Source: a virus
Lineage: Duplodnaviria > Heunggongvirae > Uroviricota > Caudoviricetes
Strand: one strand, 5' to 3'
IMG/VR virus record: IMGVR_UViG_2778261167_000006
Location: 1 to 14,302 of that record
DNA: 14,302 nucleotides
The notes below the pieces were generated by a model that did not search any database, was not told the origin of the DNA, and was given only the letters and a program-made list of their open reading frames with translations. Shown here piece by piece: positions 1 through 14,302 of the stretch (position 1 is its first letter; each line of letters opens with the position of its first letter). The translations under genes were made by a program, and so were the position numbers.

Positions 1-1047
1 TTAACAAATGTTTTTTATTTCAGTTACAGTCTGATTAAATCTCTCTTCTTCCAGTTCCACGCCAATCGCACGGCGTCCCAGTGAAAGTGCCGCTTTTATT
101 GTTGAGCCAGACCCCATAAAAAAATCAGCAACCAAATCACCAGGGCGACTGCTGGCATCAATTATCTGCCGCAACATATCCGCCGGTTTTTCACAGGGAT
201 GTTTGCCCGGATAAAACTGCACGGGTTTATGCGTCCAGACATCCGTATAAGGAACAGCTGCTGATACGGAAAAATAACGCCGCAGGGATTTGTACTCTTC
301 CAGCAGGCTGGCATATTGCCGGTTCAGTTCACTGTATACGCTGACCAGCCGGTGGTGTGGCTTTTCCAGTTCCCCACGCTGATGTTTTTCTGCTGCAACA
401 CGCGCAAACAACGCCTGTAATTTCAGATAATCGCCTTCGTTCGGCAACTGCCACTGGCTGATACCAAACCAGTGCGAAGCCATGTTTTTCTTTCCGGTGG
501 CTTCCGCTATCTGTTTTGACGTTATTCCCAGTGATTCACGCGCATCACGAAAGTAAGAAATCAGCGGGGCCATGACGTGCTGTTTAAGGTCGCGCCCCTT
601 TGCCGCATAGCCGTCATTTTTGGGCTGGTATGGCCCCTGATAATGTTCTGCAAACAGAATGCGTTCTGTTGCCGGGAAATACGCCCGCAGGCTTTCCTTG
701 TTGCATCCGTTCCAGCGTCCGGACGGCTTCGCCCAGATAATGTGGTTCAGCACATTAAAGCGTTCACGCATCATGATTTCGGTGTCAGATGCCAGGCGAT
801 GACCACAGAACAGGTAGAGACTTCCGGCAGGTTTCAGTACCCGCCAGAATTGCGCCAGACACTGATCCAGCCATTTCAGGTAATCATCGTCGCCCTTCCA
901 CTGGTTATCCCAGCCCTCGGGCTTCACTTTAAAGTATGGCGGGTCTGTGACTATCAGATCGACAGAGTTTTCCGGTAAGGTCTGGATAAATTCCAGGCAA
1001 TCAGCGTTGATTAACTCGCAACTGGATATTTTTACAGTATTAGCCAT
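1..1047 (-). CDS. DNA methyltransferase, N6-adenine or N4-cytosine type (motif order suggests beta class)
   Basis: 348-aa ORF with DLIVTDPPYF (catalytic DPPY motif) near the N-terminus and FFMGSGST (FxGxG SAM-binding motif) near the C-terminus. Stop TAA at 1-3, start ATG at 1045-1047. Confidence 0.85.
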   Translation of the reverse strand: MANTVKISSCELINADCLEFIQTLPENSVDLIVTDPPYFKVKPEGWDNQWKGDDDYLKWLDQCLAQFWRVLKPAGSLYLFCGHRLASDTEIMMRERFNVLNHIIWAKPSGRWNGCNKESLRAYFPATERILFAEHYQGPYQPKNDGYAAKGRDLKQHVMAPLISYFRDARESLGITSKQIAEATGKKNMASHWFGISQWQLPNEGDYLKLQALFARVAAEKHQRGELEKPHHRLVSVYSELNRQYASLLEEYKSLRRYFSVSAAVPYTDVWTHKPVQFYPGKHPCEKPADMLRQIIDASSRPGDLVADFFMGSGSTIKAALSLGRRAIGVELEEERFNQTVTEIKNIC

Positions 1048-1182
1048 AGATCAATAAGCACTTCTCTGATAGGCTCATTCCGCTTTTGCGCAAAGCAGAT
1101 GGGCCTGAGGTTTGCTTGTGACCCCAACGCATGAGCAGATGGCTGGCAGGTGCCGCTAACACCCACCAGCCGCCCATTACCA

Positions 1183-1211
1183 CAAATAAAAAAGCCTTCA
1201 CTGAGGAAGGC
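1183..1211 (-). terminator. Rho-independent terminator for minus-strand transcription, overlapping the 3' end of the small wHTH gene
   Basis: Inverted repeat GCCTTC (1194-1199) / GAAGGC (1206-1211) with a 6-nt loop, followed on the minus strand by a U-run (plus-strand aaataaaaaa at 1184-1193). Confidence 0.55.
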
Positions 1212-1395
1212 GTCTGTAACAACCGAACTGATAATCAGCCAGACCCGCCATAACAAGCTGGGTCAGTATTAACTGGCAACGTTCGCGTGAAAGGTAAGTA
1301 TTCTGCGCAATTTCCCCGACGGTCGCCGGTTCGGTGACGCTTAATTCATTAAACACCACTCTGGCGGTTTCGGTCATATCCTGCTGTTTTAGCAT
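1198..1395 (-). CDS. Small (65 aa) putative winged-helix DNA-binding protein, function unknown
   Basis: Internal Met of ORF 1198..1566 preceded by AAGGGA about 8 nt upstream. The longer N-terminal extension would read through a terminator hairpin, so the short start is preferred. Sequence TVGEIAQNTYLSRERCQLILTQL resembles an HTH recognition segment. Confidence 0.5.
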   Translation of the reverse strand: MLKQQDMTETARVVFNELSVTEPATVGEIAQNTYLSRERCQLILTQLVMAGLADYQFGCYRRLPQ

Positions 1396-1517
1396 GTCTT
1401 TTTCCCTTTTCTCGTTAACGTGACATACCAATAACTCTTGTCGAAAAAGCCAGCAAGCTGAAAGCCTCGTATCCGCAACCACCAGCGCGTTTAACGTCCT
1501 GTGCCGCTTTTTGGGCG

Positions 1518-1541
1518 CAAAAAACCCGCTCAGTGGCGGGT
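1518..1541 (-). terminator. Rho-independent terminator (minus strand; possibly bidirectional)
   Basis: Plus strand caaaaaACCCGCtcagtgGCGGGTtt: 6-bp GC-rich stem, 6-nt loop, flanked by an A6 run (a U-run on the minus strand) and a short T-run on the plus side. Confidence 0.5.
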
Positions 1542-1657
1542 TTAAGCTGTGTGGCGAAGTTACCACTCTTCACCAAGTATTCGGTAATAAAATAACTTGT
1601 GGTGTTCTCGTTTTTATGCCGATAAAATAAACGGTCCACTTTCAAATGGAGCGATTC

Positions 1658-2578
1658 ATGATTTTTCTCAGAACTGAAAACGGCATCGAGAAACTTGAAA
1701 ACTGGGAGGAAATTATATCCAGACCAAACTTTGTCACCGCTATAGACAAAGGAGTTCAACAACTTGAGGAGATAATTGGTTACTACAAATTTAAAGAAGA
1801 AATCCACTGTGGTCTAACTGGTTGCAACCAACCACATCAAATGGGTTATATTGTAAAAACATCTAGTGGCATTGAAACCAACATCGGAAATAAATGTGGT
1901 AAAAACGAATTTGGTGTGGAATTTGGTGAAAACGTTCTTAGTTTCAATAAATTTATGCAACTCGAAACCAATCGGGAAATTATTAGTGCCGCAAAAAGTA
2001 AATGTGAAGCGTGGCAAAAAAATATTGAAACGATACGAAATATTAAACCCACAATAGATTATCTATCTTCTACCATCGAAAATAGTAAAAATTCCAATTA
2101 CGCCGGAAGACTTGGTGCTACAGAAATTCGTTTTTTGACCAAGAGCCAGACAGGCCTTGTAACCCTTTCTGAAGTGGAAACTGATAAGAATACCAAAACA
2201 ATTCTGTTCGCAATGAATGAACACATGCGCGAGTCTGGAGAAGCAATAAGTGAATTCTACATAGGAAAAGTATCATTTAGTCATGTTCTTTTACCAGAAA
2301 ACAATCTTCGTGATTTTTTTGTTGCGCTCAAAGAAGATCTAAAAAAAATTCAGTGTATTGATCTACAAACAGCCCCAAGCCCAGAAATTTCTAATGTTGC
2401 CAAAATTGCCAGTTCAATCGAAGAACGAATCAAACGATTAAAAAAACTGAAACATGAAGCCAGTAAATTCCTAACTAAAAAAAATCTGCATCCCATCGCA
2501 AACAAAATAAAATACTCATCGACAGCGGATGAACTTGAATTCCATAATTTCGAACGCTTTTTAAACGGGCTGAAATGA
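1658..2578 (+). CDS. Hypothetical protein (306 aa), AT-rich lone gene on the opposite strand to its neighbours; candidate accessory (moron) gene
   Basis: Long ORF with GGAG 6 nt upstream of ATG 1658 (the ORF track starts at ATG 1646). GC about 35% by hand count of sampled lines, against about 55-60% in the helicase region. Contains HCGLTGC...CGKNEF cysteines but no motif I can assign. Confidence 0.7.
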   Translation: MIFLRTENGIEKLENWEEIISRPNFVTAIDKGVQQLEEIIGYYKFKEEIHCGLTGCNQPHQMGYIVKTSSGIETNIGNKCGKNEFGVEFGENVLSFNKFMQLETNREIISAAKSKCEAWQKNIETIRNIKPTIDYLSSTIENSKNSNYAGRLGATEIRFLTKSQTGLVTLSEVETDKNTKTILFAMNEHMRESGEAISEFYIGKVSFSHVLLPENNLRDFFVALKEDLKKIQCIDLQTAPSPEISNVAKIASSIEERIKRLKKLKHEASKFLTKKNLHPIANKIKYSSTADELEFHNFERFLNGLK

Positions 2579-2581
2579 TAA

Positions 2582-2599
2582 AAGCCCCGAAAGGGGCTT
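2582..2599. terminator. Stem-loop between convergent genes (possible bidirectional terminator)
   Basis: AAGCCCCgaaaGGGGCTT, a 7-bp stem with a 4-nt loop, lying between the stop of the plus-strand gene (2578) and the stop of the minus-strand 276-aa gene (2693). Flanking U-runs are weak on both strands. Confidence 0.35.
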
Positions 2600-2692
2600 C
2601 TATCAAAATCATTTACGCATTATTCCGCATGCTCAAAAGAATACATGACAGATTCGGACAAAATCAAGTGCAATGTCGCAAAAAGCCTAAGT

Positions 2693-3523
2693 TTAGTTCA
2701 CATCATCACCAAAACTTGTCACATTCTGAAAAGCAATATCGGCCTTATGCTCTTCCTGGTGACAAATGTCAACCAGAGAATCAAGAAACGGCTTCCAATT
2801 ACGTGTCCATGTCCTGACATGTAGCTCGGGTATCCGCTTCAGTACAACTTTATATACTGTGGTAGACGGTATCGTGGAAAATCCATTTCCGCTACAACGT
2901 TCGCAGATTTTAAACACTGGCACACCACGCTCGCTTGTGGCTTTGCGGTCCAGTACCTCTCCCTTTCCACCACAACGACACCTGGCACTTATCACTCCCT
3001 TCCCTTTACATACATCGCAAACGACTGGTACAACTTCTGTTACCTCTGTCCATTTCTCCCAGTCTGACGGTCGAACAGCACGGGAGCGACTGGCCCAATA
3101 TGGTGCTTTACCCCATGGGTATGAAACCTTACGAATGACCTGCTTACGGGGTGTTAGTCCGGTACCACTGCAACTATGGCATGTTACGCTGGTGGCCGCC
3201 GATCGGGAATACTCAGCAAAAGCAAACTGCGCCAGTACCAGCATACACCAGCCAAATTCACCACCAGCTGCTTTACGCACATTCTTCGGTGCAATTTCCA
3301 TCGCGTGACGCGCCAGCGCCTGGACTGCCATCTGCTCATCAGTCTTGCTGATACCTGCCTTCCCGAAGAAGGCCACCAGACCAAACCGCTCACGATTGCT
3401 GGTGGTACCAATAGCCGCCATAACATCGGTGCCTGTAAGACGTTCCGGAGAGGTTCCTTTCACATCGTCGCCGATATACATTCCCTGAGGACTGAAGTAT
3501 TTTAGCGATGCCTCAAGCTTCAT
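2693..3523 (-). CDS. Zinc-finger protein with four CxxCxGxG repeats (DnaJ cysteine-rich-domain type); last gene of the replication operon
   Basis: 276-aa ORF with CHSCSGTG, CDVCKGKG, CRCGGKG and CERCSGNG. GGGGAG lies 8 nt upstream of the ATG; the ATG overlaps the upstream gene's stop (TAATG). Confidence 0.75.
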   Translation of the reverse strand: MKLEASLKYFSPQGMYIGDDVKGTSPERLTGTDVMAAIGTTSNRERFGLVAFFGKAGISKTDEQMAVQALARHAMEIAPKNVRKAAGGEFGWCMLVLAQFAFAEYSRSAATSVTCHSCSGTGLTPRKQVIRKVSYPWGKAPYWASRSRAVRPSDWEKWTEVTEVVPVVCDVCKGKGVISARCRCGGKGEVLDRKATSERGVPVFKICERCSGNGFSTIPSTTVYKVVLKRIPELHVRTWTRNWKPFLDSLVDICHQEEHKADIAFQNVTSFGDDVN

Positions 3524-4380
3524 TATTCACACTCCCCAACCAGATTGAGAATGACCGCTGCACCGTCGTCTTCCATGCATTCACCCTTACCACTTGCCAG
3601 AAACCAGCGGCACACCTCCACGGCTTCAGCGCGTGTCACCGGTTTGATAGTTGCCAGCAATTTTTCAAGGTAGCGCTCCCGGTCATATACTGATTCGTGA
3701 TGCTCAGAGTAACCAAACTCATCGCCCTGTTCTTTAGTTGCAGTGTGGCGAACACTGTAGAGCCAGTCCCAGTAAACGAACTCGCGAACAACATCAGACA
3801 GCGTATAAGGCTCAGGCAGCACATCGCGATATCCATCAACAAATGCCCGACGCTGTTCATCAATTTCGTTCATGCGGCTGCCGCCAATGCTTCCGGCTTT
3901 TTTCTCTGCCGCAGTCCAGCCCCAGAGATGATCGTTGATAAATTTCTTGGAAGACCTGATGACCCGCTCTGCTTCCACATCTTCGAGCGCTGCTTCATAG
4001 CTACCAAACGTAGCCCTGACTGATGCCGCTTTTTTGATGTTCTCCCGGGCGTTCCTGATAACCTGCGCAGGGTTATCCATGCCGATGATGCCGAACGCAA
4101 CCTGGAAAGGTTCGTAACCATTCGCCAGCAGATAACGCGAATAGCGTTCCTGAGCCTCTTTTGGGGAAATTTTAATTTTCACCAGCGCAGCCTCAGCAGC
4201 ATCCAGATGTGCGGGTTCGTTCAGACGGATAACCTCCAGCACCCAAAGATAAGCATCAGTCTGCTTATGCCCGGTGATTCTCCGTTGCTCTGGCAGGGGC
4301 TTGATGTTTGTGAGGGCGGAGCTGTACGCTGCCGTCGGGATGGTGAATAGTGCTTTATGTTCGTTATTATCAGTACGCAT
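3523..4380 (-). CDS. Hypothetical phage protein (285 aa), coupled between primase and the zinc-finger protein
   Basis: Long ORF with TAATG start/stop overlaps at both ends (4378-4382 and 3521-3525), placing it in the same operon. No recognisable motif. Confidence 0.65.
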   Translation of the reverse strand: MRTDNNEHKALFTIPTAAYSSALTNIKPLPEQRRITGHKQTDAYLWVLEVIRLNEPAHLDAAEAALVKIKISPKEAQERYSRYLLANGYEPFQVAFGIIGMDNPAQVIRNARENIKKAASVRATFGSYEAALEDVEAERVIRSSKKFINDHLWGWTAAEKKAGSIGGSRMNEIDEQRRAFVDGYRDVLPEPYTLSDVVREFVYWDWLYSVRHTATKEQGDEFGYSEHHESVYDRERYLEKLLATIKPVTRAEAVEVCRWFLASGKGECMEDDGAAVILNLVGECE

Positions 4381-5348
4381 TACGCAACCGCCTTTTTCTT
4401 ATGGAAAACCAGCTCTCGAACCTGATCACCGTTCATGAGCATATTGTTGAAATCATCGTGATCCGGCCAGTACACGCTCACGCGCTGCAGGTCATTCTTT
4501 GCCATCAGATTGGCATGAGCACATTCGCAAGCCGCAGCCAGCCCGGTGGCGCTGTTCTCGTCACGGTCGGCAAAAATAATCAGGTGCAGAACACCAGCTG
4601 GTACGCGGAACTTTTTCATAAAGCCGCTGTTAATGGTTGCCCAGGTGTTCACGTTATAAATCTGGTGCGCTGACAGCGCTGTTTCGATGCCTTCGGCGAT
4701 ACCCAGAGTGCTGGCGACAGGAAACATGCGGATAGCTACAGAACGAGCGTGATCCAAATAGTTATCTTCCTGCAGGGATTTGAGGCGCTTTGCACTGCTA
4801 CCGATATCTGCTTTTTTATCACCATCAAGCAGAGTCTGGTGCAGATAGCACAGCTCCCCTTTATCGTCCGTAGCAAGTGAATAAAGAGACTGGAACACAC
4901 TCCCGTTGTGTCTCTGCCTGGCATTGAACCGGATCGCCTCAGCAGGAAGACTGAATATTCCACGAGAATTAAGATACGCTGCGCCGGATGTACCACGCAG
5001 TGCCTCCAGTTTTGAAAACTTGCTCAATACCCGTTTGCGTAAGCTGGTGGCGCTGCTGGTTACCGGGATTTTAACCCGTTGGTAATCATTACCGATCAGG
5101 CGGTCTATTTCGGTACAAATCTCGTTAAATGGCTTCGCCTGTGTCAGGGTGACAAGTTTCATACCATCGCCACTACCACATACACAGATCCACGTTCCTG
5201 CACCGTCGCGGTCATCAATTCGGAACTTGCCACGTGCACCGCATACCGGGCATTCACCCTTGAAGTGATTTTTTCCGGTTATCGGCGGCAGACCGAAGTG
5301 CTCTAATATTTCAGGCCAGCGGCCTTTCGCTGCATCTGCTGTTTTCAT
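4380..5348 (-). CDS. DNA primase, TOPRIM type with N-terminal zinc-binding motif
   Basis: 322-aa ORF. N-terminal CPVCG...CVCG zinc-ribbon-like motif; IAEGIETALS (conserved TOPRIM Glu) and IIFADRDENSATGLAAA (DxD motif). Start lies 2 nt after the helicase stop. Confidence 0.85.
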   Translation of the reverse strand: MKTADAAKGRWPEILEHFGLPPITGKNHFKGECPVCGARGKFRIDDRDGAGTWICVCGSGDGMKLVTLTQAKPFNEICTEIDRLIGNDYQRVKIPVTSSATSLRKRVLSKFSKLEALRGTSGAAYLNSRGIFSLPAEAIRFNARQRHNGSVFQSLYSLATDDKGELCYLHQTLLDGDKKADIGSSAKRLKSLQEDNYLDHARSVAIRMFPVASTLGIAEGIETALSAHQIYNVNTWATINSGFMKKFRVPAGVLHLIIFADRDENSATGLAAACECAHANLMAKNDLQRVSVYWPDHDDFNNMLMNGDQVRELVFHKKKAVA

Positions 5349-5349
5349 C

Positions 5350-7008
5350 TTACTGACTCAGACTGTTTATATTTTTCTGGAGTTGGTGCTTTGCCTGCAT
5401 GATGCGCCAGGCCTCACTGCCTGCCGGCATCTCACGTCGTTCATCACGTTCCTGAGATAAATCAATCGTTGTTTGTGCGTTTTCAGTGACCTTCTGAACC
5501 CGCTGACGGCCTTTGGCAAACCGAATCAGCTTGTGTTTGATGTAGTTACTTACCTCTGGGCTTATTTCCATCGGGAAACTGCTCAACCCATCAGGCCATT
5601 CACCGAATTTCTCCCTGAAAGTGTGAGCACACCATCCATCACTGACTGGACGCCCCAGCGAAGCACGCTGGCGCTGATAAAATTTGATCTGACTCCACCA
5701 GGACTGTTTCTCTGCCTTCGTCGACTGATGCTGATTTTTACCCAGCTTATTAAGTTTGCGGCTAGTGTCAGTATCAACGTCTTCACCTCGCAGCGGCTTG
5801 TGTCCACATTTCGGGCAAACATAGACGCCAGCTGGCTTCATGTAGTGGCATTGAGGGCATTCATGTGGCAGTTTTTCGGCCCGTTCCTCAACTGCGCGGC
5901 GCGCGCTTTCCTCCATACCGTCAGACTTGCCGGGAAGATCGTCGTACTCGATTGAATCCGGATAACCCAGACGGTGCACGGTGCCGCTATGATCGAAGAT
6001 GAGGCAGGACTCTTTACCCGGTGCGGTGCGCAGCCCACGCCCGAGTGCCTGCAACCAGCGAATTTCGCTTTTTGTTGGCCTGGCGTAGATGATGCAACGA
6101 ACGTCACTATCGAAGCCGGCCACCAGCACGCCCACACTAACGATGATTTTCGTTGCACCAGTTTCAAAGCGGTGAATGATGGTCTGGCGCTCATCTACCG
6201 GAGTGTCTGCGGTCATTACCTCAGCGTTAACACCTGCGAGGTTAAACTGGATTGTCAGGTAATTGGCGTGGGCTACGTTGACGCAGAAAGCGATGGTAGG
6301 TAGATCCCGACCATTCTCCAGCCAGTTCTGTACAATGTCGCCCACCAGCGTAGATCCGCACATGATTTCAGCTAGCTGCGTTTCGTTGTAATCCCGGCCG
6401 TACTCAAGCGAAGATGTGGTTTTAACACCTTTCAGATCCGGCTTAGTTGGCGCGTAAAATTCGTATTTACTCAGATCGCCACGCTGGATTAACTCGCCGA
6501 TTGTGGTCGGCTTAATCAGTCGGTCATAGTATTTGCCCAGGAACGGGGAAAACGGAGTACCCGACAGGCCAATCACCTTTACGCCTTTGCCGCGCAGACG
6601 TTCGATATCCTTCAGGATGCGTTTTTTACGCAGGTGCGCTTCGTCGATAATCAGCAGATCGATATTTTCAGGAAAAACACGACGAATAAGCGTGTCAGCG
6701 CTGGCAATCTGAATTTTCCGGTCCGGATCGTAGTTCGGGTGATCCGCCCAGATATAACCGATTTCATCTCCAGGTAAACCATACTGCACGAACCGATTAG
6801 CCGTCTGACCAATCAGGATGGTGTACGGAACACAGAACAGGACGCGCATACCACGACTGACAAACCCGGCAACGATGAAGGCAGCCAAACCCGTTTTACC
6901 GCTACCGGTTGGCGAATACACCATGAAGGTGTCGTTTGCCTTCCAATCACGGCGCAACATGTTTAGCGCTCGTTCCTGTGCAAAATTCGGCGTGATCGTC
7001 AGCTCCAT
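5350..7008 (-). CDS. Superfamily-2 DEAD/DEAH-box helicase with C-terminal zinc ribbon (replicative helicase)
   Basis: 552-aa ORF. Walker A SPTGSGKT, motif II IDEAH, motif III-like SGTP, C-terminal CPQCH...CPKCG. GGGAG 7 nt upstream of the start. Confidence 0.9.
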   Translation of the reverse strand: MELTITPNFAQERALNMLRRDWKANDTFMVYSPTGSGKTGLAAFIVAGFVSRGMRVLFCVPYTILIGQTANRFVQYGLPGDEIGYIWADHPNYDPDRKIQIASADTLIRRVFPENIDLLIIDEAHLRKKRILKDIERLRGKGVKVIGLSGTPFSPFLGKYYDRLIKPTTIGELIQRGDLSKYEFYAPTKPDLKGVKTTSSLEYGRDYNETQLAEIMCGSTLVGDIVQNWLENGRDLPTIAFCVNVAHANYLTIQFNLAGVNAEVMTADTPVDERQTIIHRFETGATKIIVSVGVLVAGFDSDVRCIIYARPTKSEIRWLQALGRGLRTAPGKESCLIFDHSGTVHRLGYPDSIEYDDLPGKSDGMEESARRAVEERAEKLPHECPQCHYMKPAGVYVCPKCGHKPLRGEDVDTDTSRKLNKLGKNQHQSTKAEKQSWWSQIKFYQRQRASLGRPVSDGWCAHTFREKFGEWPDGLSSFPMEISPEVSNYIKHKLIRFAKGRQRVQKVTENAQTTIDLSQERDERREMPAGSEAWRIMQAKHQLQKNINSLSQ

Positions 7009-7270
7009 TGTGCTGCTCCCGTGCTGATGAGATAATAATTTCGTGATGTGGTTTTCATGGATTCCCCCTCACATGGCTGGTGGCCTCCCCAAAGGCTGCC
7101 AGCCCCCTTTCTGATTCAGCTCCTCTGAAAAATCACTCTTCCAAGAAGAACCCTTTTCGTTTCTCAAGGCCTGGGCGCTTTGTACTACCTTGCTGATACG
7201 AGCGTTTTTTTAAATTGCGCCCTTAAGACAGTGATCTACTTAACCAATGGATCTCTCCTGTTGGAAAAGA

Positions 7271-7324
7271 CCCTATTCCTGCCCCTACACCCAATCCCCC
7301 CCTACCCCCCTTTCCCTCTTCCCC
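7271..7324. repeat. Polypyrimidine, C-run-rich tract (G-run-rich on the minus strand) in a noncoding region
   Basis: Plus strand ccctattcctgcccctacacccaatccccccctacccccctttccctcttcccc; the minus strand carries consecutive G-runs. No ORF covers it. Confidence 0.6.
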
Positions 7325-7350
7325 ATAAAAACGTACTACTTACCTAGTAC
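7325..7350 (-). terminator. Weak terminator-like hairpin downstream of the cII-position gene
   Basis: Plus strand ataaaaac + GTACTA cttacc TAGTAC; on the minus strand this is a 6-bp AT-rich stem followed by GUUUUUAU. Confidence 0.3.
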
Positions 7351-7421
7351 ATATGAGGAATTGGGTCAGTTGGTTGCCAACCTGAACAGGCACCTTTAAG
7401 CCTGCTTCTGTTCGGGTGCCT

Positions 7422-7730
7422 TTAAACCCGAAACAATGAGGAGCGCGATAGCGATCCAGCCAGGGGCGGCTGAGTTGTATACCCCTGTAAAGCCCTGCCC
7501 TGATTTCTCACAAACAAGCGGAGCCTTGTGTTTGCTTCGTGCCTTGCTCTGTTCTCCTTGCGGAATGAAACAGGCTCAGCGTCAAAAGTGATTTCGTATA
7601 CCTCCGCATATTTCAGGGCGACCTTCCGTCTCAGTGACGGAGGCAGCCCCTGTAACTGCTGCTGAATCCACTCTTCGTCTGCCTGGCAGTACCTAGATGG
7701 CATCTCTGTCTGAACGTAATTCTGGGACAT
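7422..7730 (-). CDS. Hypothetical protein (102 aa) at the position lambda gives to cII; no similarity to lambda CII recognised
   Basis: ORF immediately downstream of the Cro-like gene on the same strand, overlapping it by 38 nt. Confidence 0.5.
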   Translation of the reverse strand: MSQNYVQTEMPSRYCQADEEWIQQQLQGLPPSLRRKVALKYAEVYEITFDAEPVSFRKENRARHEANTRLRLFVRNQGRALQGYTTQPPLAGSLSRSSLFRV

Positions 7731-7980
7731 ACAAGCCCTTCACCTCCGCCGTGCGCGCTAAGCTTGGATGTGGAAAAAGCTCTGGTAGGTCTGGACGAAA
7801 TTCATACGCTTGGATCTTTCCGTCGACAGCTGCAACCAATAACGGCACAAATTCTGGTGAAATCTTGTTCTTGCAGTTCAACCAATCGCAGACTGTTGAC
7901 TGGGCCTTTCCGCATCGCTTGGCTAAGGCTTGCTGACTTCCAAGAATCTCAATAGCTTTCTCTATGGCTTTATGTTTCAT
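7693..7980 (-). CDS. Cro-like HTH DNA-binding protein
   Basis: HTH segment GSQQALAKRCGKAQSTVCDWL. Start chosen at the Met preceded by AGGAGA 7 nt upstream (plus-strand tctcct at 7988-7993). Divergent from the CI-like gene. Confidence 0.75.
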   Translation of the reverse strand: MKHKAIEKAIEILGSQQALAKRCGKAQSTVCDWLNCKNKISPEFVPLLVAAVDGKIQAYEFRPDLPELFPHPSLARTAEVKGLYVPELRSDRDAI

Positions 7981-8002
7981 AATCGCATCTCCTATTGAGC
8001 GC

Positions 8003-8031
8003 ATAATAGCAACAGAAAAAGCGATATTCAA
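8003..8031 (-). promoter_or_regulatory. Putative sigma-70 promoter for the Cro-like gene (PR analog)
   Basis: Minus strand TTGAAT, 17-bp spacer, TATTAT (plus-strand attcaa at 8026-8031 and ataata at 8003-8008), about 15 nt upstream of the RBS. Confidence 0.5.
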
Positions 8032-8047
8032 CGTTAAACCTAGATCA

Positions 8048-8067
8048 TTTATCGGAAAGCCGATAAA
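8048..8067. promoter_or_regulatory. Perfect palindrome, candidate repressor/Cro operator
   Basis: TTTATCGG aaag CCGATAAA: perfect 8-bp inverted repeat with a 4-bp spacer, about 35-50 bp upstream of the CI-like start codon. Confidence 0.45.
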
Positions 8068-8099
8068 CTAACCAGGATAGAAAGGGGAGGAAAATCGCA

Positions 8100-8792
8100 A
8101 TGACATTTTCAGAACGACTTGATTTAGCTATGCGCAACGCAAAATTTACGCAAGGTAGGCTGGCCAAAGAAGTGGGTATGGCTCAGTCCAGTGTTAATCA
8201 ACTACTTAATAAAGCCAACGGTTCCAGAAAAACAGTCGAAATAGCAAAAGTTTTGGGCGTTAACCCGGAATGGCTCGCATCGGGTGTTGGCCCAATGGAA
8301 ATCGTGACCTCTGCAGACTCACACCAAATACGTAACATTTCTGAAGATTGGGTTACTGATTCGTATGTCGTGGATGTTTTAGACATCAGATATAGTTGCG
8401 GACCTGGTAGTTATAACTCTGATTTTCCTGACATTGTCAGATCTATAGCGATAGAACCAGGATACGCATCAAGAGTTTTTGGCGGCAGACCAGCATCAGC
8501 AATCAAAGCAATAAACGCCCACGGCGACAGTATGAAAGGCACAATAGACCCTGAAGACTTGGTATTTGTAGATGTATCAGTTCGCACATTTAATGGTGAT
8601 GGTATATACGCCTTTACATACTCTGGAACATCGCACATCAAAAGACTTCAAAAAATCAAAGATACTCTAACGGTGATATCTGACAACCCAGCTTACAAGG
8701 ATTGGGCTATCGAACCGGAAGACTTCGAACAACTTCACATTGACGGAAAAGTAATTGTCAGTTGGCCCATGACACTACACCGTTTTGCATAA
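8100..8792 (+). CDS. CI-like repressor: N-terminal XRE-type HTH plus C-terminal S24 (LexA-like) autopeptidase domain
   Basis: 230-aa ORF. HTH segment QGRLAKEVGMAQSSVNQL; C-terminal GDSM (Ser nucleophile) and downstream HIKRL (Lys). AGGGGAGG RBS before the ATG. Confidence 0.9.
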   Translation: MTFSERLDLAMRNAKFTQGRLAKEVGMAQSSVNQLLNKANGSRKTVEIAKVLGVNPEWLASGVGPMEIVTSADSHQIRNISEDWVTDSYVVDVLDIRYSCGPGSYNSDFPDIVRSIAIEPGYASRVFGGRPASAIKAINAHGDSMKGTIDPEDLVFVDVSVRTFNGDGIYAFTYSGTSHIKRLQKIKDTLTVISDNPAYKDWAIEPEDFEQLHIDGKVIVSWPMTLHRFA

Positions 8793-8810
8793 GCAAAAAT
8801 CATTTAACCC

Positions 8811-8837
8811 GCCCACTCTTAAGTGGGCTTTTTTTTT
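8811..8837 (+). terminator. Rho-independent terminator after the repressor gene
   Basis: GCCCACT ctta AGTGGGC (7-bp stem) followed by T9. Confidence 0.8.
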
Positions 8838-8859
8838 GGAAAAAAAATCGATAAACCGA

Positions 8860-8888
8860 TTGACAGGTAAAATCGGCGAACCTATTAT
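8860..8888 (+). promoter_or_regulatory. Near-consensus sigma-70 promoter (PL-like or lysogenic-conversion promoter)
   Basis: TTGACA (8860-8865), 17-bp spacer, TATTAT (8883-8888). Inverted repeat ACCTAT (8880-8885) / ATAGGT (8895-8900) overlaps the -10 and the predicted start site. Confidence 0.6.
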
Positions 8889-8937
8889 CATGACATAGGT
8901 ATCGAACTCACCAAAGCAATTATAGAGGATGAGAAAA

Positions 8938-9348
8938 ATGTCATCGTATATGGGGTTACCAACAAATCAGCACGATGCTCTTGAGAATATTCAGCTCTTA
9001 GTAGGGGCTGGTGCACTACTGTATAGCAGCAATAACCCTGAGTTAATTGAACTTGCCAGCTCCATCCTGGCTGTAACTCAAAAATATAGCCTCACCGCGT
9101 CACGTTTATGCAAACAAAATTTAGCTATTAATTCCCAGAATCGGATTCGCACCCAACGCGAAGCCTGCGGCTTAACAACCGCCGAACTCGCCAGGCTGCT
9201 CGATCTCGATGAAGAAATCATCATCCAGTGGGAGAGCGGAGAGTATGAACCAACTATCAGTATGCTTATCCCGCTGGCAAATGTTCTTGGTTGCGACCCG
9301 ATGTGGCTGTTAACCAGTAAACCAACAGCTGGGGATACTTGCGCATGA
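8938..9348 (+). CDS. Two-domain protein (136 aa): unknown N-terminal domain plus C-terminal XRE-family HTH
   Basis: AGAGGA 8 nt upstream of ATG 8938 (the ORF track starts at ATG 8929, which has no spacer). C-terminal HTH segment LTTAELARLLDLDEEIIIQWESGEYEPTISMLIPLANVLGCDPMWLL. Confidence 0.7.
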   Translation: MSSYMGLPTNQHDALENIQLLVGAGALLYSSNNPELIELASSILAVTQKYSLTASRLCKQNLAINSQNRIRTQREACGLTTAELARLLDLDEEIIIQWESGEYEPTISMLIPLANVLGCDPMWLLTSKPTAGDTCA

Positions 9349-9710
9349 AAAAGTTCGAAAACATAACTGTTCTCCATGTTGATGAATTTGATTATACAAA
9401 CCAGGAATTTCTCCCGGAGGTTATAAAAGCAATAGAAGTTGCCGATATAGTGTTTAGAGGAAAGAGAATTGTCAAAAACAGGCTCGCATGCACTTCAGGA
9501 GCAATGACAGAAACAACCTCACAACAAGATGATTATGAAGGCATTTGTCTGGAGCCTGATTCATTTGCGGTAAATGTTTATCATTTATTGCATGCAACAC
9601 AGGTATTACATATGTCCAGTAATCACGAGACAAAAACACTTGGCAGCGAAATTCTGAATTTTGCATGTGAATATGCAAAAGCTGCTGCCGAAAAAGAATT
9701 AGCACAATAA
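9345..9710 (+). CDS. Hypothetical protein (121 aa), translationally coupled to the upstream HTH gene
   Basis: ATG 9345-9347 overlaps the upstream stop TGA 9346-9348 (ATGA). AT-rich, about 33% GC in a sampled line. No recognisable motif. Confidence 0.65.
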   Translation: MKKFENITVLHVDEFDYTNQEFLPEVIKAIEVADIVFRGKRIVKNRLACTSGAMTETTSQQDDYEGICLEPDSFAVNVYHLLHATQVLHMSSNHETKTLGSEILNFACEYAKAAAEKELAQ

Positions 9711-9908
9711 CAACAAACATGCCCTGAACGTTTATTACGGTTTTATCGCCGGGGATTGTTACAACCTTTATTCATAGAGGGAAATCAGTTATGACTTTCC
9801 TGAAAAATAAGGCATCGTATAAAACTGCCTGCCTCATTGCACAACATGGAGATTCTTATCTTCATATAGCCAACCTGTATTTGCGCAAAGCATATGGGAG
9901 ATAAGTCA

Positions 9909-10097
9909 ATGGAAGAAAAACAACAAAACATAACACATAAAAAAGTAAGAGTGTTGCTAACCATTGAAAATGGTGAAGTAATTTACTCAAAACATCTGTT
10001 GGATAATGAATTCGTTGGCTGCATGGATACATTTCTGTGGATGGCAAAAAGAGCGGGTTACACGATTATTCCACCAGCAAAGGAGCAAACATTATGA
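9909..10097 (+). CDS. Hypothetical small protein (62 aa), first gene of a coupled pair
   Basis: GGGAG 8 nt upstream of ATG 9909; stop TGA 10095-10097 overlaps the next start ATG 10094-10096. AT-rich, about 27% GC in a sampled line. Confidence 0.5.
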   Translation: MEEKQQNITHKKVRVLLTIENGEVIYSKHLLDNEFVGCMDTFLWMAKRAGYTIIPPAKEQTL

Positions 10098-10675
10098 ATC
10101 ATTCAGAGTTCCGACCAGAAGTTACGCCACATGGCATAAAAATTGGCAATACAACCATTGATTATGTTGAGGCCGTACAGCGGCTTAATGATGGTGAATA
10201 CGATTATCCAAACTCACACGGTTTAAGAATCATGCAATGTATTGCTGAAGCCGATGATGCAGGGTTGCTGGGACGATTCTCAGTCGATATGAAGGTTGCT
10301 CAGTGGCGATGGCTGTATGTGACTACGTTTATAAATGAAGAGAAAGACAAGAACGGTACCGTTGATATCCCTAACGATAACGGAACTACAGATCACGCAG
10401 TTATTTACAAGGGTAAACATGGTTGCCTGAGTATCTACCCCGGACCACTTCGTATTGCCCTGCAAAACCACGTCGAATGGGGATTTATTGAAAAATATGG
10501 CGAAGCTGAAGGTATGGGGCGAGTTCTGTTTCTCTATCAAAAAATGCTCATCGCAGATCCTGATAATGGTTTCATTATTTCTGCTATGGGGCGCGAAGAG
10601 CTTGAACTCCTTCTGGATGAAATGATGAACGATCTGAATACTCATGGTATGCCAGAAGCGCCAGTGACACATTAA
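10094..10675 (+). CDS. Hypothetical protein (193 aa), second gene of a coupled pair
   Basis: AGGAG 8 nt upstream of ATG 10094; ATGA overlap with the upstream small ORF. The track ORF starting at 10037 lacks an RBS. Confidence 0.65.
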   Translation: MNHSEFRPEVTPHGIKIGNTTIDYVEAVQRLNDGEYDYPNSHGLRIMQCIAEADDAGLLGRFSVDMKVAQWRWLYVTTFINEEKDKNGTVDIPNDNGTTDHAVIYKGKHGCLSIYPGPLRIALQNHVEWGFIEKYGEAEGMGRVLFLYQKMLIADPDNGFIISAMGREELELLLDEMMNDLNTHGMPEAPVTH

Positions 10676-10720
10676 ATATTAAGAAGAATATAATTCTTCC
10701 ATCGTTTACTAACCGTTTAT

Positions 10721-10828
10721 ATGAAAAACAACCGTGAATTAAACAGAGTAAAACTGATTTTAATCCTTGCCACAGTACTGACACTAACTGAAATCATTAT
10801 TCTCTTTATTGCGCTGTCAGTCGGTTAA
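10721..10828 (+). CDS. Possible small hydrophobic peptide (35 aa, single predicted transmembrane segment)
   Basis: ATG...TAA ORF translating to MKNNRELNRVKLILILATVLTLTEIIILFIALSVG. No clear Shine-Dalgarno; below the size cut-off of the ORF track. Confidence 0.25.
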   Translation: MKNNRELNRVKLILILATVLTLTEIIILFIALSVG

Positions 10829-10851
10829 AAATATCGGGATACCACAGACCA

Positions 10852-11040
10852 ATGAGACTGTATTTCACAATAGTAATTTTACTGGCAATTATCGCATGCA
10901 TTTACGGATTACTCGTTCCGTTCCTTATATCCATGAAGGATACGATAGCCGTTACTTCTGGCTTTGCACTGGCGTTTCTGACCCCGCCCTGCATTTATGC
11001 CATTTACAAGGGTCTTTCTTTCACTAAGGATAAAAGATGA
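10852..11040 (+). CDS. Small membrane protein (62 aa, two predicted hydrophobic helices)
   Basis: Hydrophobic stretches IVILLAIIACIYGLLVPFLI and GFALAFLTPPCIYAIY. Stop TGA 11038-11040 overlaps the start of the SPFH gene (ATGA). Weak RBS. Confidence 0.5.
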   Translation: MRLYFTIVILLAIIACIYGLLVPFLISMKDTIAVTSGFALAFLTPPCIYAIYKGLSFTKDKR

Positions 11041-11864
11041 AAAAAATTATTTTTGCTTTAGCCATTGTTCTGCCGACTATTGGCCTTGTCGGTTGCGATC
11101 GCGTTGAACCAGGTAATGTTGGCATCAAGGTAAATAAACTGGGCGACGACAAAGGCGTCGGTGAGGTGGTCGGTGTTGGTCGCTACTGGACTGGCTGGAA
11201 TACTGAAGTTTACATCTTCCCCACCTTCAAGCAAATGAAGACCTACGATGAACCGTTCAGTTTCCAGATGAGTGACGGTACAACCATCGGCTATCACATT
11301 GGCGTGGCCTACAAAGTTGATCCATCCAAAGTTACCACGGTGTTTCAGACCTACCGCAAAGGCGTGGATGACATTACAGACACCGACCTGCGCCAGAAGA
11401 TCGCCGACGCACTCAACCGACTGGCCAGCAAAATGACCACCGACAAATTTATCGACGGCGGCAAGTCTGAGCTACTGGATGAAGCTCTTAAAGACATTCA
11501 GGCAGAGATGACACCCATCGGTATTCAGGTAATGAGCCTCTCATATGTGGGTAAGCCGGAGTACCCGCCTACTGTTATCGACAGCATTAATGCCAAAGTC
11601 ACGGCGAACCAGAAAACACTGCAGCGCGAGCAGGAAGTTAAACAGCGCGAAGCGGAAGCCAACATGTTGCGCGCGGAAGCTGCCGGACAGGCTGATGCTA
11701 TTCGCACAAAAGCCCAGGCTGAAGCCGACGCCATTCGTTTACGCGGTGAAGCTCTGCGCCAGAACCCCGGTGTTATGGAGCTGGAAGCCATCAATAAATG
11801 GAACGGCACACTGCCGCAATACATGACCAGCGGTGCTAATACACCATTTATCCAGGTTAAATAA
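11037..11864 (+). CDS. SPFH/band-7 (stomatin/prohibitin/HflKC-like) domain lipoprotein
   Basis: N-terminal lipoprotein signal MKKIIFALAIVLPTIGLVGC (lipobox LVGC). Central region typical of SPFH proteins; C-terminal Ala/Gln/Glu/Arg-rich coiled-coil-like segment. AAGGA 6 nt upstream of the ATG. Confidence 0.75.
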   Translation: MKKIIFALAIVLPTIGLVGCDRVEPGNVGIKVNKLGDDKGVGEVVGVGRYWTGWNTEVYIFPTFKQMKTYDEPFSFQMSDGTTIGYHIGVAYKVDPSKVTTVFQTYRKGVDDITDTDLRQKIADALNRLASKMTTDKFIDGGKSELLDEALKDIQAEMTPIGIQVMSLSYVGKPEYPPTVIDSINAKVTANQKTLQREQEVKQREAEANMLRAEAAGQADAIRTKAQAEADAIRLRGEALRQNPGVMELEAINKWNGTLPQYMTSGANTPFIQVK

Positions 11865-11871
11865 CTTATAT

Positions 11872-11890
11872 GCCCGGCAGGCCGCCGGGC
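11872..11890 (+). other. GC-rich stem-loop immediately after the SPFH gene (no U-tract)
   Basis: GCCCGGC aggcc GCCGGGC, a 7-bp stem, followed by taaggg rather than a T-run. Confidence 0.4.
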
Positions 11891-11904
11891 TAAGGGAAAT
11901 GCAG

Positions 11905-12264
11905 ATGAACACCCAGAATACTCAACCGCAAATAATGAACTATGACCCAAATCTGACGTCATGCGGACGCATGGCAAAACAAACCGTTCGATTAACTTTC
12001 GGACTATGGGAATACCGCGAAACATTCGAAGTCACTGTCGGCGGCAATCTGACCGGACTGGATGTTATCAGTTGCGCTATTGAAAGCCTGTACGCAACGC
12101 TGCCTTATGAAGAAGTCGAGGATGAGCGCGATATCATAGCCACCATTAATATCGGCGGACTGGAATGCAAGGATGAAAACCTGTCCGGAGAGCTCTGGCT
12201 TGCCGGGATGCTTATCTCAGCAGAAATCATCAGCATTGAACCCGCTACAAACATACGACTCTGA
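11905..12264 (+). CDS. Hypothetical protein (119 aa)
   Basis: AAGGGA 7 nt upstream of ATG 11905; the track ORF's earlier Mets lack RBS spacing. No recognisable motif. Confidence 0.55.
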   Translation: MNTQNTQPQIMNYDPNLTSCGRMAKQTVRLTFGLWEYRETFEVTVGGNLTGLDVISCAIESLYATLPYEEVEDERDIIATINIGGLECKDENLSGELWLAGMLISAEIISIEPATNIRL

Positions 12265-12295
12265 AGTTCTCACTATTCAGAGAGCAGGAGAAAAA

Positions 12296-12538
12296 ATGTT
12301 CGCTTTGATTAATCAGGGACAACTGTATACCGACAGTGCCGGTTACCCGGTAAGAATTATTCGCTGCATAAATAACACCGTGTTGTACAGAAGAATGGAT
12401 GGGCGAACACAGTCGGTAAAAATAAACGATTTTAATGAAACGTTTGAACGGCTCGATCATCAGGAATACCTACAAATTCTGGCAGAAACAGAGCAGGAAA
12501 CTCATCTGAAGAAATTACGAGCCATGCAAAGGAAGTAA
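12296..12538 (+). CDS. Hypothetical small protein (80 aa)
   Basis: AGGAG 5 nt upstream of ATG 12296, an internal Met of track ORF 12173..12538. Confidence 0.55.
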   Translation: MFALINQGQLYTDSAGYPVRIIRCINNTVLYRRMDGRTQSVKINDFNETFERLDHQEYLQILAETEQETHLKKLRAMQRK

Positions 12539-12541
12539 AAA

Positions 12542-12688
12542 ATGAATAAAGCGTTTGAGCTATGGGTACGCCAGCGTTACGGCAATCGCTATGACCTGAC
12601 GCGAGATGTTGACGGTTTCTACTGCCGTGAAATTGTAAAACGAATGTTTGAAGTGTGGTGCCACTGCCGTGGGCTGAGTGTTGTGTGA
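12542..12688 (+). CDS. Possible small protein (48 aa)
   Basis: ATG 12542 follows AGGAAG about 8 nt upstream and runs to TGA 12686-12688; translation MNKAFELWVRQRYGNRYDLTRDVDGFYCREIVKRMFEVWCHCRGLSVV. Below the ORF-track size cut-off. Confidence 0.35.
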   Translation: MNKAFELWVRQRYGNRYDLTRDVDGFYCREIVKRMFEVWCHCRGLSVV

Positions 12689-12696
12689 GGTAATGC

Positions 12697-12933
12697 ATGG
12701 GCAATGTGATTCAACTGGCTCCCAATGAATGGGTTTGTGAAAGCGTTCTTATCGCAATTACCGGGCTCAAACCAGGCACAATTCTCCGGGCCCGGAAAGA
12801 ATGCTGGATGGTAGGAAGAGAGTATATTCACGTATCGCCTGACGGTAATCCAAAACCTTCCAGCGAGTGTATGTATAACAGAAAAGCAATCGATGCCTGG
12901 GTCGCTTCAATGAAAAACAAACAACCTGGGTGA
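12697..12933 (+). CDS. xis: Excisionase-like small DNA-binding protein (recombination directionality factor)
   Basis: 78-aa ORF immediately upstream of the integrase on the same strand. WVCESVLIAITGLKPGTILRARKECWMVGREYIHV matches, from memory, the prophage excisionase-like family seen upstream of e14/Rac-type integrases. Confidence 0.7.
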   Translation: MGNVIQLAPNEWVCESVLIAITGLKPGTILRARKECWMVGREYIHVSPDGNPKPSSECMYNRKAIDAWVASMKNKQPG

Positions 12934-12988
12934 TTTAATACCATGAAATATGTAAGCTCGTATCGCTCTTGGGCGTCTGGAGGTATCG

Positions 12989-14302
12989 ATGGATAAAGTC
13001 AAATATCCAACAGGCGTCGAAAACCACGGTGGCACATTACGCATCTGGTTTAATTTTAAAGGTAAACGTGTCAGGGAAAATCTTGGTGTCCCTGACACTG
13101 CCAAGAACAGGAAGATCGCCGGAGAGCTGCGGACATCTGTATGTTTTGCCATTCGTACAGGAAACTTTGATTACGCTGCGCAGTTCCCTGACTCTCCTAA
13201 CCTCAAGGCTTTTGGAGTAAATAAAAAAGAAATTACGGTGAAAGAGCTTGAAGAAAAGTGGCTGGATCTGAAACGCATGGAAATCTCTGCAAATGCATTC
13301 AATCGCTATGAGTCCGTTGCAAGAACAATGATTCCGAAAATTGGAGGTAGCAGACTGGTGTCAACGGTGACCAAAGAGGAATTGCTGTATATCAGGAAAG
13401 ATTTGCTGACCGGATATCATAATTCAACGAAAGACAAAGCACCAGCAAGAGGACGGAGTGTCGTTACTGTAAATTATTATATGACGACAATCGCTGGAAT
13501 GTTTCAGTTTGCTGCAGATCACGGTTACTTAGAAGCAAATCCCTTCGAGGGAATTAAGCCTCTTAAAAGAGCCAGGGCAGAGCCAGATCCGCTAACTCGT
13601 GACGAATTTATTCGCCTGATAGATGCTTGCCGGCATCAGCAGACAAAAAACCTGTGGTCATTGGCTGTGTACACAGGAATGCGTCATGGTGAACTGGTCT
13701 CCCTGGCCTGGGAAGATATCGATCTGAAAGCAGGAACAATTACTATCAGGCGCAATTATACGAAACTCGGTGAGTTCACTCTACCTAAAACTGAAGCAAG
13801 TACAAACAGGGTTGTGCATCTTATCCAGCCCGCTATCAGTGTCCTGAAAAATCAGGCTGAAATGACAAGACTGGGTAAGCAGCACCACATCAAGGTTCAA
13901 CTACGTGAATATGGACGTTCAGTGAATCATGAATGTACTTTCGTATTTAACCCCCAGGTGGTTAGAAAAAGCAAACAGGTAGGTTTTATCTACAAGGTAG
14001 ATTCCATTGGCGACTCATGGGAAACAGCCATTAAGCGTGCAGGCATCAGGCATCGAAAGGCATACCAGTCACGACACACTTATGCGTGCTGGTCATTATC
14101 TGCCGGAGCAAATCCAAGCTTCATTGCCAGCCAGATGGGCCATGCAAGTGCCCAGATGGTGTTCAATGTATACGGAGCCTGGATGACTGACAGCAATGCA
14201 GAACAGATCGCAATGCTGAATCAGAAGCTGGCAGATTATGTCCCAATGATGTCCCATGGTCACCAAAGTGACACAAGAGACTTATTAAAATCAGTAGGTT
14301 AG
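12989..14302 (+). CDS. int: Tyrosine recombinase / phage integrase
   Basis: 437-aa ORF with an N-terminal arm-binding-type region (YPTGVE...GTLRIWFNFKGKRVRE) and a C-terminal catalytic region with conserved Arg (MRHGELV), His/Arg (SRHTYA) and a Tyr near the C-terminus (VYGAWM). GGAGG 5 nt upstream of the ATG. Confidence 0.9.
   Translation: MDKVKYPTGVENHGGTLRIWFNFKGKRVRENLGVPDTAKNRKIAGELRTSVCFAIRTGNFDYAAQFPDSPNLKAFGVNKKEITVKELEEKWLDLKRMEISANAFNRYESVARTMIPKIGGSRLVSTVTKEELLYIRKDLLTGYHNSTKDKAPARGRSVVTVNYYMTTIAGMFQFAADHGYLEANPFEGIKPLKRARAEPDPLTRDEFIRLIDACRHQQTKNLWSLAVYTGMRHGELVSLAWEDIDLKAGTITIRRNYTKLGEFTLPKTEASTNRVVHLIQPAISVLKNQAEMTRLGKQHHIKVQLREYGRSVNHECTFVFNPQVVRKSKQVGFIYKVDSIGDSWETAIKRAGIRHRKAYQSRHTYACWSLSAGANPSFIASQMGHASAQMVFNVYGAWMTDSNAEQIAMLNQKLADYVPMMSHGHQSDTRDLLKSVG

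Follow-up and report, generated by a model that had tools for sequence, protein, structure and literature searches.

Does a lambdoid prophage with its own helicase and primase genes also bring a chaperone for replication, or is the zinc-finger protein encoded behind them a regulator of late transcription? The question is raised by IMG/VR virus record IMGVR_UViG_2778261167_000006, of which positions 1 to 14,302 (the whole 14,302-nt stretch analysed here, hereafter the window) form the left half of a lambdoid prophage. Two − strand genes make up the interval in question, one for a protein of 285 amino acids (aa; 3523..4380) and one for a protein of 276 aa (2693..3523), and the delayed-early rightward operon ends with them. 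A first-pass annotation had placed the two open reading frames (ORFs) at these positions, as we also read them from the sequence; it regarded the 276-aa product as a DnaJ-like remodelling or loader factor and named a zinc-finger late regulator, possibly Q, as its fallback. The fallback proved correct. The 276-aa protein is very probably the Q antiterminator of this prophage, a long-armed member of the Q-lambda family, and the 285-aa protein the product of a separate accessory gene. As an identification this is ordinary and already known, Q being annotated in near-identical phages and genomes.

Identity and architecture of the 276-aa protein

A Pfam profile search of the 276-aa protein returned PF03589 (Antiterm), which is the Q-lambda family (Yin et al., PMC9388147), at 174.1 bits against a cutoff of 26.7 and in two stretches. 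The profile phrog_127 ("anti-termination protein Q-like") matched residues 1-270 at 3.1e-98. Among PDB sequences the only real matches were to lambda Q, with chain 7ubm_Q at E=1.1e-35, residues 1-123 aligning to lambda 1-126 and residues 180-268 to lambda 116-205. The structure prediction proposed with the first-pass annotation gave the same answer: an AlphaFold2 (AF2) model with a mean predicted local distance difference test score (pLDDT) of 67, and of more than 90 in the body helices, retrieved lambda Q for all of its best eight Foldseek matches in the PDB, each with probability 1.0 (7ubn_Q, E=9.5e-10). Proteins 98% identical to it carry the name "antitermination protein", among them the Q of the Stx2f phage phi467, which lies upstream of stx2f and whose gene has been treated as the late regulator q (PMC7366253). 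The same gene is annotated as Q also in vB_EcoS-611R1 (611R1), Fels-1, ENT39118 and KPP5665-2, and in these four as in phi467 stx or lysis genes follow downstream.

The chaperone reading drew on four repeats of the Cys-x-x-Cys-x-Gly-x-Gly type, which are indeed shared with the DnaJ/Hsp40 cysteine-rich domain (PF00684). Three are canonical, namely knuckle 1 (C115HSCSGTG, nt 3158-3181), knuckle 2 (C169DVCKGKG, nt 2996-3019) and knuckle 4 (C207ERCSGNG, nt 2882-2905, all on the − strand), whereas the third (C182RCGGKG, nt 2960-2980, −) has the form CxCxGxG, which is invariant in 27 aligned homologues. Shuffling the protein 100,000 times produced at least one such motif in just 0.4% of cases, and none of the eight motif cysteines varies among homologues of 68-98% identity; thus the motifs are not a product of chance. 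The spacing of the knuckles (46, 5 and 18 residues between motifs) and the CxC motif nevertheless differ from DnaJ. That the protein is a DnaJ-type remodeller or loader of the helicase-primase, replacing the host DnaK/DnaJ step of lambda replication, is hardly credible: beyond the four knuckles and a position downstream of the helicase and primase genes, it could appeal to sub-threshold matches to DnaJ_CXXCXGXG (PF00684, 25.7 bits, residues 169-215 only) and to NCBIfam TIGR02349 DnaJ_bact (22 bits), but these lie far under their cutoffs (32.7 and 377.2 bits) and are limited to residues 167-215, the best DnaJ structure in Foldseek (7zhs, DnaJA2) reached only E=3.5 and probability 0.41, lambda Q accounts for the full length of the protein, and the same protein lies downstream of DnaB or nin-type genes in other phages. 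The absence of a J-domain motif, seen already at the first pass, was confirmed, as the Pfam search with E up to 0.1 matched no J domain, G/F region or DnaJ C-terminal substrate-binding domain. In the comparison of profiles that had been proposed to decide the matter, the Q family thus stood far above its cutoff and the DnaJ families below theirs, and the remodelling factor was refuted.

In lambda Q, residues 1-44 refold when NusA binds and form a nozzle at the RNA-exit channel, four helices with a helix-turn-helix (HTH; residues 61-113 and 153-207) form the body, and a zinc-ribbon arm (114-152) contacts positions 11-13 of the Q-binding element (QBE) as well as the beta' zinc-binding domain of RNA polymerase (RNAP; PMC9388147). 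Body, arm and N-terminal segment all have counterparts in the 276-aa protein, which shares family, fold and domain order with lambda Q (PF03589; PDB 4MO1, 7UBJ-7UBN), from the nozzle segment through the helical HTH body and the Cys4 zinc-ribbon arm to the C-terminal helix. Residues 1-44 (3392..3523, −) align residue for residue with the nozzle segment, including GTDVMAA.G39, and are disordered in the AF2 model (pLDDT <50), like free lambda Q. At the other end, a C-terminal specificity segment (LHVRTWTRNWKPF; 2696..2875, −), which we assign to class I (see below), aligns with lambda Q 153-207.

The two proteins differ in length, with 276 residues in the window against 207 in lambda, and the difference lies in the arm. 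Over residues 112-178 (2990..3190, −), some 68 extra residues, lambda Q is a single gap in the MAFFT alignment. This insertion brings, unlike lambda Q, a second pair of knuckles (knuckle 1, C115xxC118, and knuckle 2, C169xxC172) and between them a long basic beta-hairpin, with AF2 strands at 123-135 and 158-168 and an isoelectric point (pI) of 9.8 for residues 123-179. The counterpart of the lambda arm itself follows at residues 179-216 (2876..2989, −) with knuckle 3 (C182xC184, a CxC unlike lambda Q) and knuckle 4 (C207xxC210), whose cysteines C182/C184 and C207/C210 align with lambda C118/C121 and C144/C147. Residues 179-220 align with the whole lambda arm (~114-155) at a score of 79, which none of 2000 shuffles reached. 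Residues 111-178 show a weak likeness to both the lambda arm and the second unit, at scores reached by 9-18 of 2000 shuffles, for example VPVVCDVCKGKG vs VPVFKICERCSGNG. From the model and this likeness we infer that the insertion is a zinc-ribbon-like unit, a tandem and diverged duplication of the zinc ribbon. The four knuckles probably bind two zinc ions in tandem pairing (1+2 and 3+4) and not in the interleaved manner of DnaJ (1+4 and 2+3); tandem ribbons are favoured because of the AF2 secondary structure and the internal similarity, and the low to moderate confidence of the modelled arm (pLDDT 48-81 over residues 111-220) weighs against this pairing.

Such a long arm is not rare. Defining the long form as an alignment over at least 80% of the 276-aa query in one piece, we found it in 133 of 250 matching phage records, including ES18, SPN3UB, mEp460 and Stx2c-converting phages; lambda, P22, HK106 and similar phages align to the query in two pieces. 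All long-form matches listed with an annotation are named Q or antitermination protein. By this count, roughly one in two Q-lambda-type genes of sequenced phages would encode a long form with a doubled zinc-ribbon arm, and none of the solved Q structures that we found represents it. The long-form Q proteins of Fels-1, ES18 (gp73), phi467, ENT39118, Klebsiella prophages and Stx2c phages have the same architecture and the same eight cysteines at 33-98% identity, and they show no material difference from the Q of the window apart from the class of the C-terminus, which is class I in the window and class II in Fels-1 and 611R1. Q21 (PF06530) and Q82 (PF06323) do the same job from the same genome position and are unrelated to Q-lambda in sequence and fold (PMC9388147).

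The putative late promoter and its co-variation with the Q C-terminus

A promoter-like element and a terminator lie directly downstream of Q, as the promoter and terminator do in lambda. On the − strand, the −35 hexamer TTGATT (2662..2667) of a PR'-like late promoter begins 26 nt past the Q stop codon, and the −10 hexamer TATTCT (2638..2643) lies 18 nt past the −35. An intrinsic terminator follows at 2578..2599 (AAGCCCC-TTTC-GGGGCTT, then TTAT), the analogue of tR', with a fold of −26.3 kcal/mol (z=−4.8) that none of 200 shuffles equalled. Judging from its position it would end a leader transcript of ~50 nt, vs ~194 nt in lambda. We compared 12 long-Q loci from E. coli, Salmonella, Klebsiella, Cronobacter, Kluyvera, Phytobacter and Pectobacterium, and all 12 have TTGAYT, an 18-nt spacer, TAnnnT (T1, A2 and T6 of the −10 being kept throughout) and a GC-rich hairpin with a T-run after Q. 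The hairpin sequences are unrelated among these loci, and their position is the same.

Within the initially transcribed region, a −10-like AATAAT (2619..2624, −) is matched in the alignment by TATAAC or TATAGC at five further loci and by TAAAAC at a sixth; by analogy with lambda PR' (PMC9388147) it may serve as a sigma-dependent pause element.

The nine bases following the −35 hexamer come in only two types among the 12 loci, and the type tracks the HTH-bearing C-terminal segment of Q in every one of them. TTGTCCGAA goes with a class I C-terminus (...LH[VI]RTWTRNWKPF or LQERTWNRNW) in all seven loci that have it, and TTGCATAAA with a class II C-terminus (...SSATVHRAI..LHQSSWSRNWKPF) in the remaining five (7/7 and 5/5). 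The lambda promoter PR' reads TTGACT-TA-TTGAATAAA, with TTGAATAAA in the same promoter spacer, which we take to be the position of the lambda QBE. Because the C-terminal class co-varies with the DNA and because of the position in the lambda spacer, we infer that 2661-2653 (2653..2661, −), which in the window abuts the −35 and reads TTGTCCGAA where lambda reads TTGAATAAA, is a candidate for the body half-site of the QBE.

Additionally, a mosaic breakpoint separates the window from 611R1 inside Q, just past the fourth knuckle. The two are 99% identical from 4500 down to ~2880 and unrelated thereafter; past this point the window has a class I C-terminus with TTGTCCGAA, and 611R1 a class II C-terminus with TTGCATAAA. 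The DNA-reading end of Q and the promoter thus seem to be exchanged as one cassette.

Several points weigh against this account of the locus. The promoter matches the consensus at 8 of 12 positions, below the threshold of a simple scanner, which therefore missed it. The co-variation could partly reflect linkage, since the C-terminal codons of Q and the promoter are less than 250 bp apart and the 611R1 breakpoint at ~2880 shows them moving together; against pure linkage counts that the motif beside the −35 is kept exactly between loci with diverged flanks, for example between Pectobacterium and the window. Finally, antitermination activity, QBE binding and pausing are predictions from homology and from the comparison of loci. 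A scan with a 32-nt consensus of the promoter was uninformative, as the pattern is too strict and the genome collection holds one genome per species: viral contigs gave one match, and 37 matches in genome contigs of unrelated taxa were taken as chance. The Rfam search of the window matched no family.

If the locus works in the manner of lambda, Q would bind the site beside the −35 of the promoter that begins 26 nt past its own stop codon and would load onto RNAP paused shortly after initiation. It would then allow RNAP to read past the terminator at 2599-2578 and past additional terminators that precede the late region.

On the opposite strand, an 80-aa ORF (2575-2817, +) was rejected as a gene; it has no family match and overlaps both the terminator, whose hairpin it crosses, and the 3′ end of Q. 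It starts in an ATGA overlap with the end of a 310-aa ORF that is convergent with Q. Three further + strand ORFs antisense to the interval (2766-3308, 3176-3505 and 3697-4023) gave no match in the phage-family search.

The 285-aa protein and its gene neighbourhoods

Does the gene upstream of Q serve replication, Q, or neither? Both genes of the interval are joined to their upstream neighbours by a TAATG overlap on the − strand, as the first-pass annotation had claimed, one between the primase stop and the 285-aa start (4378..4382) and one between the 285-aa stop and the Q start (3521..3525), so that each start codon begins with the final base of the stop codon before it. For Q, a GGGGAG Shine-Dalgarno sequence is found 8 nt upstream, within the codons for the conserved VGECE C-terminus of the 285-aa protein. 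One- or four-base overlaps are annotated also in phi467, Fels-1, ENT39118 and KPP5665-2; thus close junctions are a conserved feature of these genes.

The 285-aa protein matches phrog_6204 over its full length (1.4e-181, 1-285 of 286 profile positions); this family, of unknown function, includes the "Fels-1 prophage protein" STM0902. The protein had no significant match in Pfam, NCBIfam or PADLOC and no match by sequence or fold in the PDB, so that all structure and profile searches beyond this family came back empty. An exhaustive search for relatives yielded 136 representative clusters, and all 51 relatives that we aligned match phrog_6204. P30, T36, G37, D42, P191 and E252 are invariant in this alignment together with aromatic or hydrophobic positions, and no conserved residues of a catalytic type were found in it. 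The family is a genuine functional orphan, widespread and uncharacterised.

Most relatives carry ~45 additional N-terminal residues that the window protein lacks. In this extension Pfam detected an HTH (Sigma70_r4_2, HTH_23, HTH_28 or HTH_38) in roughly one third of the aligned members; one relative has a Bro-N domain, and one matches a ParB-like PHROG. Names given by the Prokaryotic Genome Annotation Pipeline (PGAP) under the full-length E. coli matches of the interval that were listed are "antitermination protein" and, for the other gene, "hypothetical" or "helix-turn-helix domain containing protein". For the window protein the latter name is inherited from relatives and misleading, because the extension with the HTH is absent and the ORF cannot be extended upstream; no HTH family matched it in Pfam or NCBIfam.

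What remains is an acidic, all-helical protein (pI 5.5 overall and 4.7 for the C-terminal domain; family median 5.7) with a conserved N-terminal motif, D-N-x-x-H-R-x-L-F-T-L-P, at residues 4-15 (window 4336-4371, −), which is disordered in the model. N5 and F12 are each conserved in 45 of 51 sequences and P15 in 48. The motif is retained (MNNNNLQHNQFFTI) in a short form of 158 aa (phrog_2887), which is found at the corresponding position in Klebsiella phage KPP5665-2 and is 42% identical to the C-terminal domain (172-285) of the window protein. By its conservation and disorder the motif looks like a short linear binding motif. Its H-R-x-L-F may recall, in the Leu-Phe core, peptides that bind the sliding clamp (beta-clamp).

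Our best guess is that the subfamily of the window lost its N-terminal DNA-binding domain and keeps a disordered peptide with an acidic helical body. We tentatively regard the protein as a possible non-enzymatic, protein-binding adaptor or regulator; the poor AF2 model (pLDDT 61.5) and the lack of positive functional evidence for the protein speak against this.

The first-pass annotation had described both genes as coupled into the helicase-primase operon. The sequence bears this out, but nothing about function follows from it, because the early-right operon of lambdoid phages, to our knowledge, always ends with Q, and long Q follows quite different genes elsewhere. In the window, phi467, 611R1, Fels-1 and ENT39118, genes for a helicase of superfamily 2 (SF2) and a primase are followed by the 285-aa family and long Q, and in KPP5665-2 the short form, with the N-terminal motif and the C-terminal domain, takes the middle place. 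The family precedes long Q also behind a DUF927 primase-helicase and a single-stranded DNA-binding protein (SSB) in K. aerogenes, behind SSB in Salmonella (L053, where the locus is cut upstream) and behind DnaC-like and DnaB genes in Pectobacterium. In Yersinia it stands between a DUF927 primase-helicase and a Q of the Q21 type (PF06530). In elements from Klebsiella and Serratia, a DUF927 primase-helicase (plus SSB in the Klebsiella element) precedes it and no Q is adjacent. Conversely, long Q occurs without the 285-aa family at five loci (L054-L058), where it follows a 191-aa ORF (L054), YbcO/DUF1367, or DnaB and a 103-aa ORF.

Overall, Q comes directly after the family in 10 of the 12 kinds of context that we examined, with an overlap of 1-4 nt wherever the two abut and a gap of 84-187 nt in L008, L053 and Yersinia. 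The elements without an adjacent Q (L002-L004 from Klebsiella and L007 from Serratia) are prophage-like and also carry AlpA and Ash-domain genes; their relatives of the 285-aa protein bear an HTH, and their genes close the early block, ahead of tail-type genes.

Since the family occurs with three replication machineries and two Q families, and since Q also occurs without it, the 285-aa protein is a dedicated partner neither of Q nor of one replication machinery. By analogy, its gene appears to fill the slot of the last early gene, as the nin genes do in lambda.

Among more specific roles, that of a replication accessory, either an adaptor that recruits a part of the host replisome through the N-terminal peptide or an origin-binding initiator, is unlikely. 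The family directly follows replication genes in every context examined, even in the two kinds of element without an adjacent Q, some relatives have an N-terminal HTH, and the Leu-Phe core of the motif has been likened above to clamp-binding peptides. However, the variety of three unrelated replication machineries argues against a specific replisome partner, and Pectobacterium and Klebsiella phages keep the protein, or just its C-terminal domain, beside complete replication modules. Moreover, the subfamily of the window lacks the HTH, the protein is acidic, and neither iterons nor an AT-rich tract were found in or near its gene; an origin in the style of lambda O inside the gene was rejected, as it contains no direct repeats and no AT-rich tract. 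Our analysis yielded no support for a replication role and no observation that would exclude one, and related-locus searches with two single distant relatives as queries found nothing.

A dedicated cofactor or modulator of Q (a timer, a chaperone or an anti-Q) would explain the conserved overlap junction, the prevalent position directly upstream of Q and the Shine-Dalgarno sequence of Q embedded in the conserved C-terminal codons. Such a role is nonetheless very unlikely, given long Q without the gene in L054-L058, the pairing with an unrelated Q family (PF06530) in Yersinia and the relatives with no Q beside them in Klebsiella and Serratia elements; adjacency to Q is in any case trivial for a gene at the end of the early region.

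Prophage context and predicted consequences for late gene expression

The − strand order leading to the interval is a YdaS/Cro-like gene, a 102-aa gene, the SF2 helicase, the primase, the 285-aa gene and Q. The helicase (ResIII/Helicase_C; 5350..7008, −) has a C-terminal extension of ~200 residues and a CPQC...CPKC zinc ribbon at residues ~380-405 with weak DZR/Zn_Ribbon_1 matches. The primase (4380..5348, −) combines a zinc ribbon, DUF7146 and Toprim_3. No initiator of the lambda O/P type was found in the window, and no iterons between 2600 and 8100. An S24 cI-type repressor (8100-8792, +) is followed by the early-left arm, which encodes an SPFH/Band 7 protein (11037-11864, +) and, within 11833-12538 (+), DUF5406 and DUF4222 proteins. 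A tyrosine integrase with an Arm DNA-binding domain (12989-14302, +) closes the end of the window opposite to Q.

The DNA identity of the interval is 95% with phi467, 99% with 611R1 (over window 2880-4500) and 80% with Fels-1. The interval was matched in 105 of 5,426 complete E. coli genomes; in 31 of these the match covers at least 80% of the interval. Downstream, window 1519-2700 matches phi467 at 98%, and 1-1584 shares 93% identity with phiP27, an Stx2e phage, and 86-87% with many Stx2a/c/d phages. This segment encodes a DNA methylase (N6_N4_Mtase; 1-1047, −) and a small phrog_331 ORF (within 1198-1566, −), named TrmB-family regulator by RefSeq in phiP27. The window stops short of any stx or lysis genes.

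Between the predicted Q-dependent promoter and terminator on one side and the late region on the other lies the 310-aa ORF (1646-2578, +), a full-length match to phrog_7003 (unknown function) with no match in Pfam or PADLOC. It is AT-rich, with a GC content of 35.6% vs ~50% in its flanks. Its sequence is annotated as two shorter ORFs in phi467, and Fels-1, 611R1 and ENT39118 have a convergent ORF of differing length and annotation at the same spot, which suggests that the site is a hot spot for opposite-strand cargo genes. Two further terminator-like hairpins lie on the − strand beyond it, one seen by eye at ~1545-1520 and one detected by the scanner at 1211-1194.

Late transcripts would be antisense to the 310-aa ORF. 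According to the course proposed here, Q-modified RNAP would pass the hairpins at ~1545-1520 and 1211-1194 and reach the methylase gene; in phi467 it would continue to stx2f, the tRNA genes and the lysis genes that make up the late region of these close relatives.

For annotation, these results mean that the zinc-finger gene should be named Q and not a chaperone, and that the label "helix-turn-helix protein" does not fit the 285-aa gene of the window. Q controls late transcription, and in the Stx2f phage phi467 (95% identical) the toxin genes come directly after it, so that the elements at 2667-2578 (candidate site, promoter and terminator) may bear on the strength of toxin and lysis gene expression in such prophages. 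It is rather a long shot, taking both parts together, that the second ribbon of Q makes an extra contact to DNA or RNAP and that the N-terminal peptide of the 285-aa protein captures a host factor such as the sliding clamp. If the former were true, long-form Q proteins, including those upstream of stx2f and stx2c, would load RNAP with a geometry unlike that of the solved lambda complex; if the latter, the 285-aa protein would represent a novel class of early phage adaptor, encoded where the replication genes give way to the late genes. Of modest wider interest are the doubled arm in about half of the Q-lambda family and the apparent swapping of the Q C-terminus together with its DNA site.

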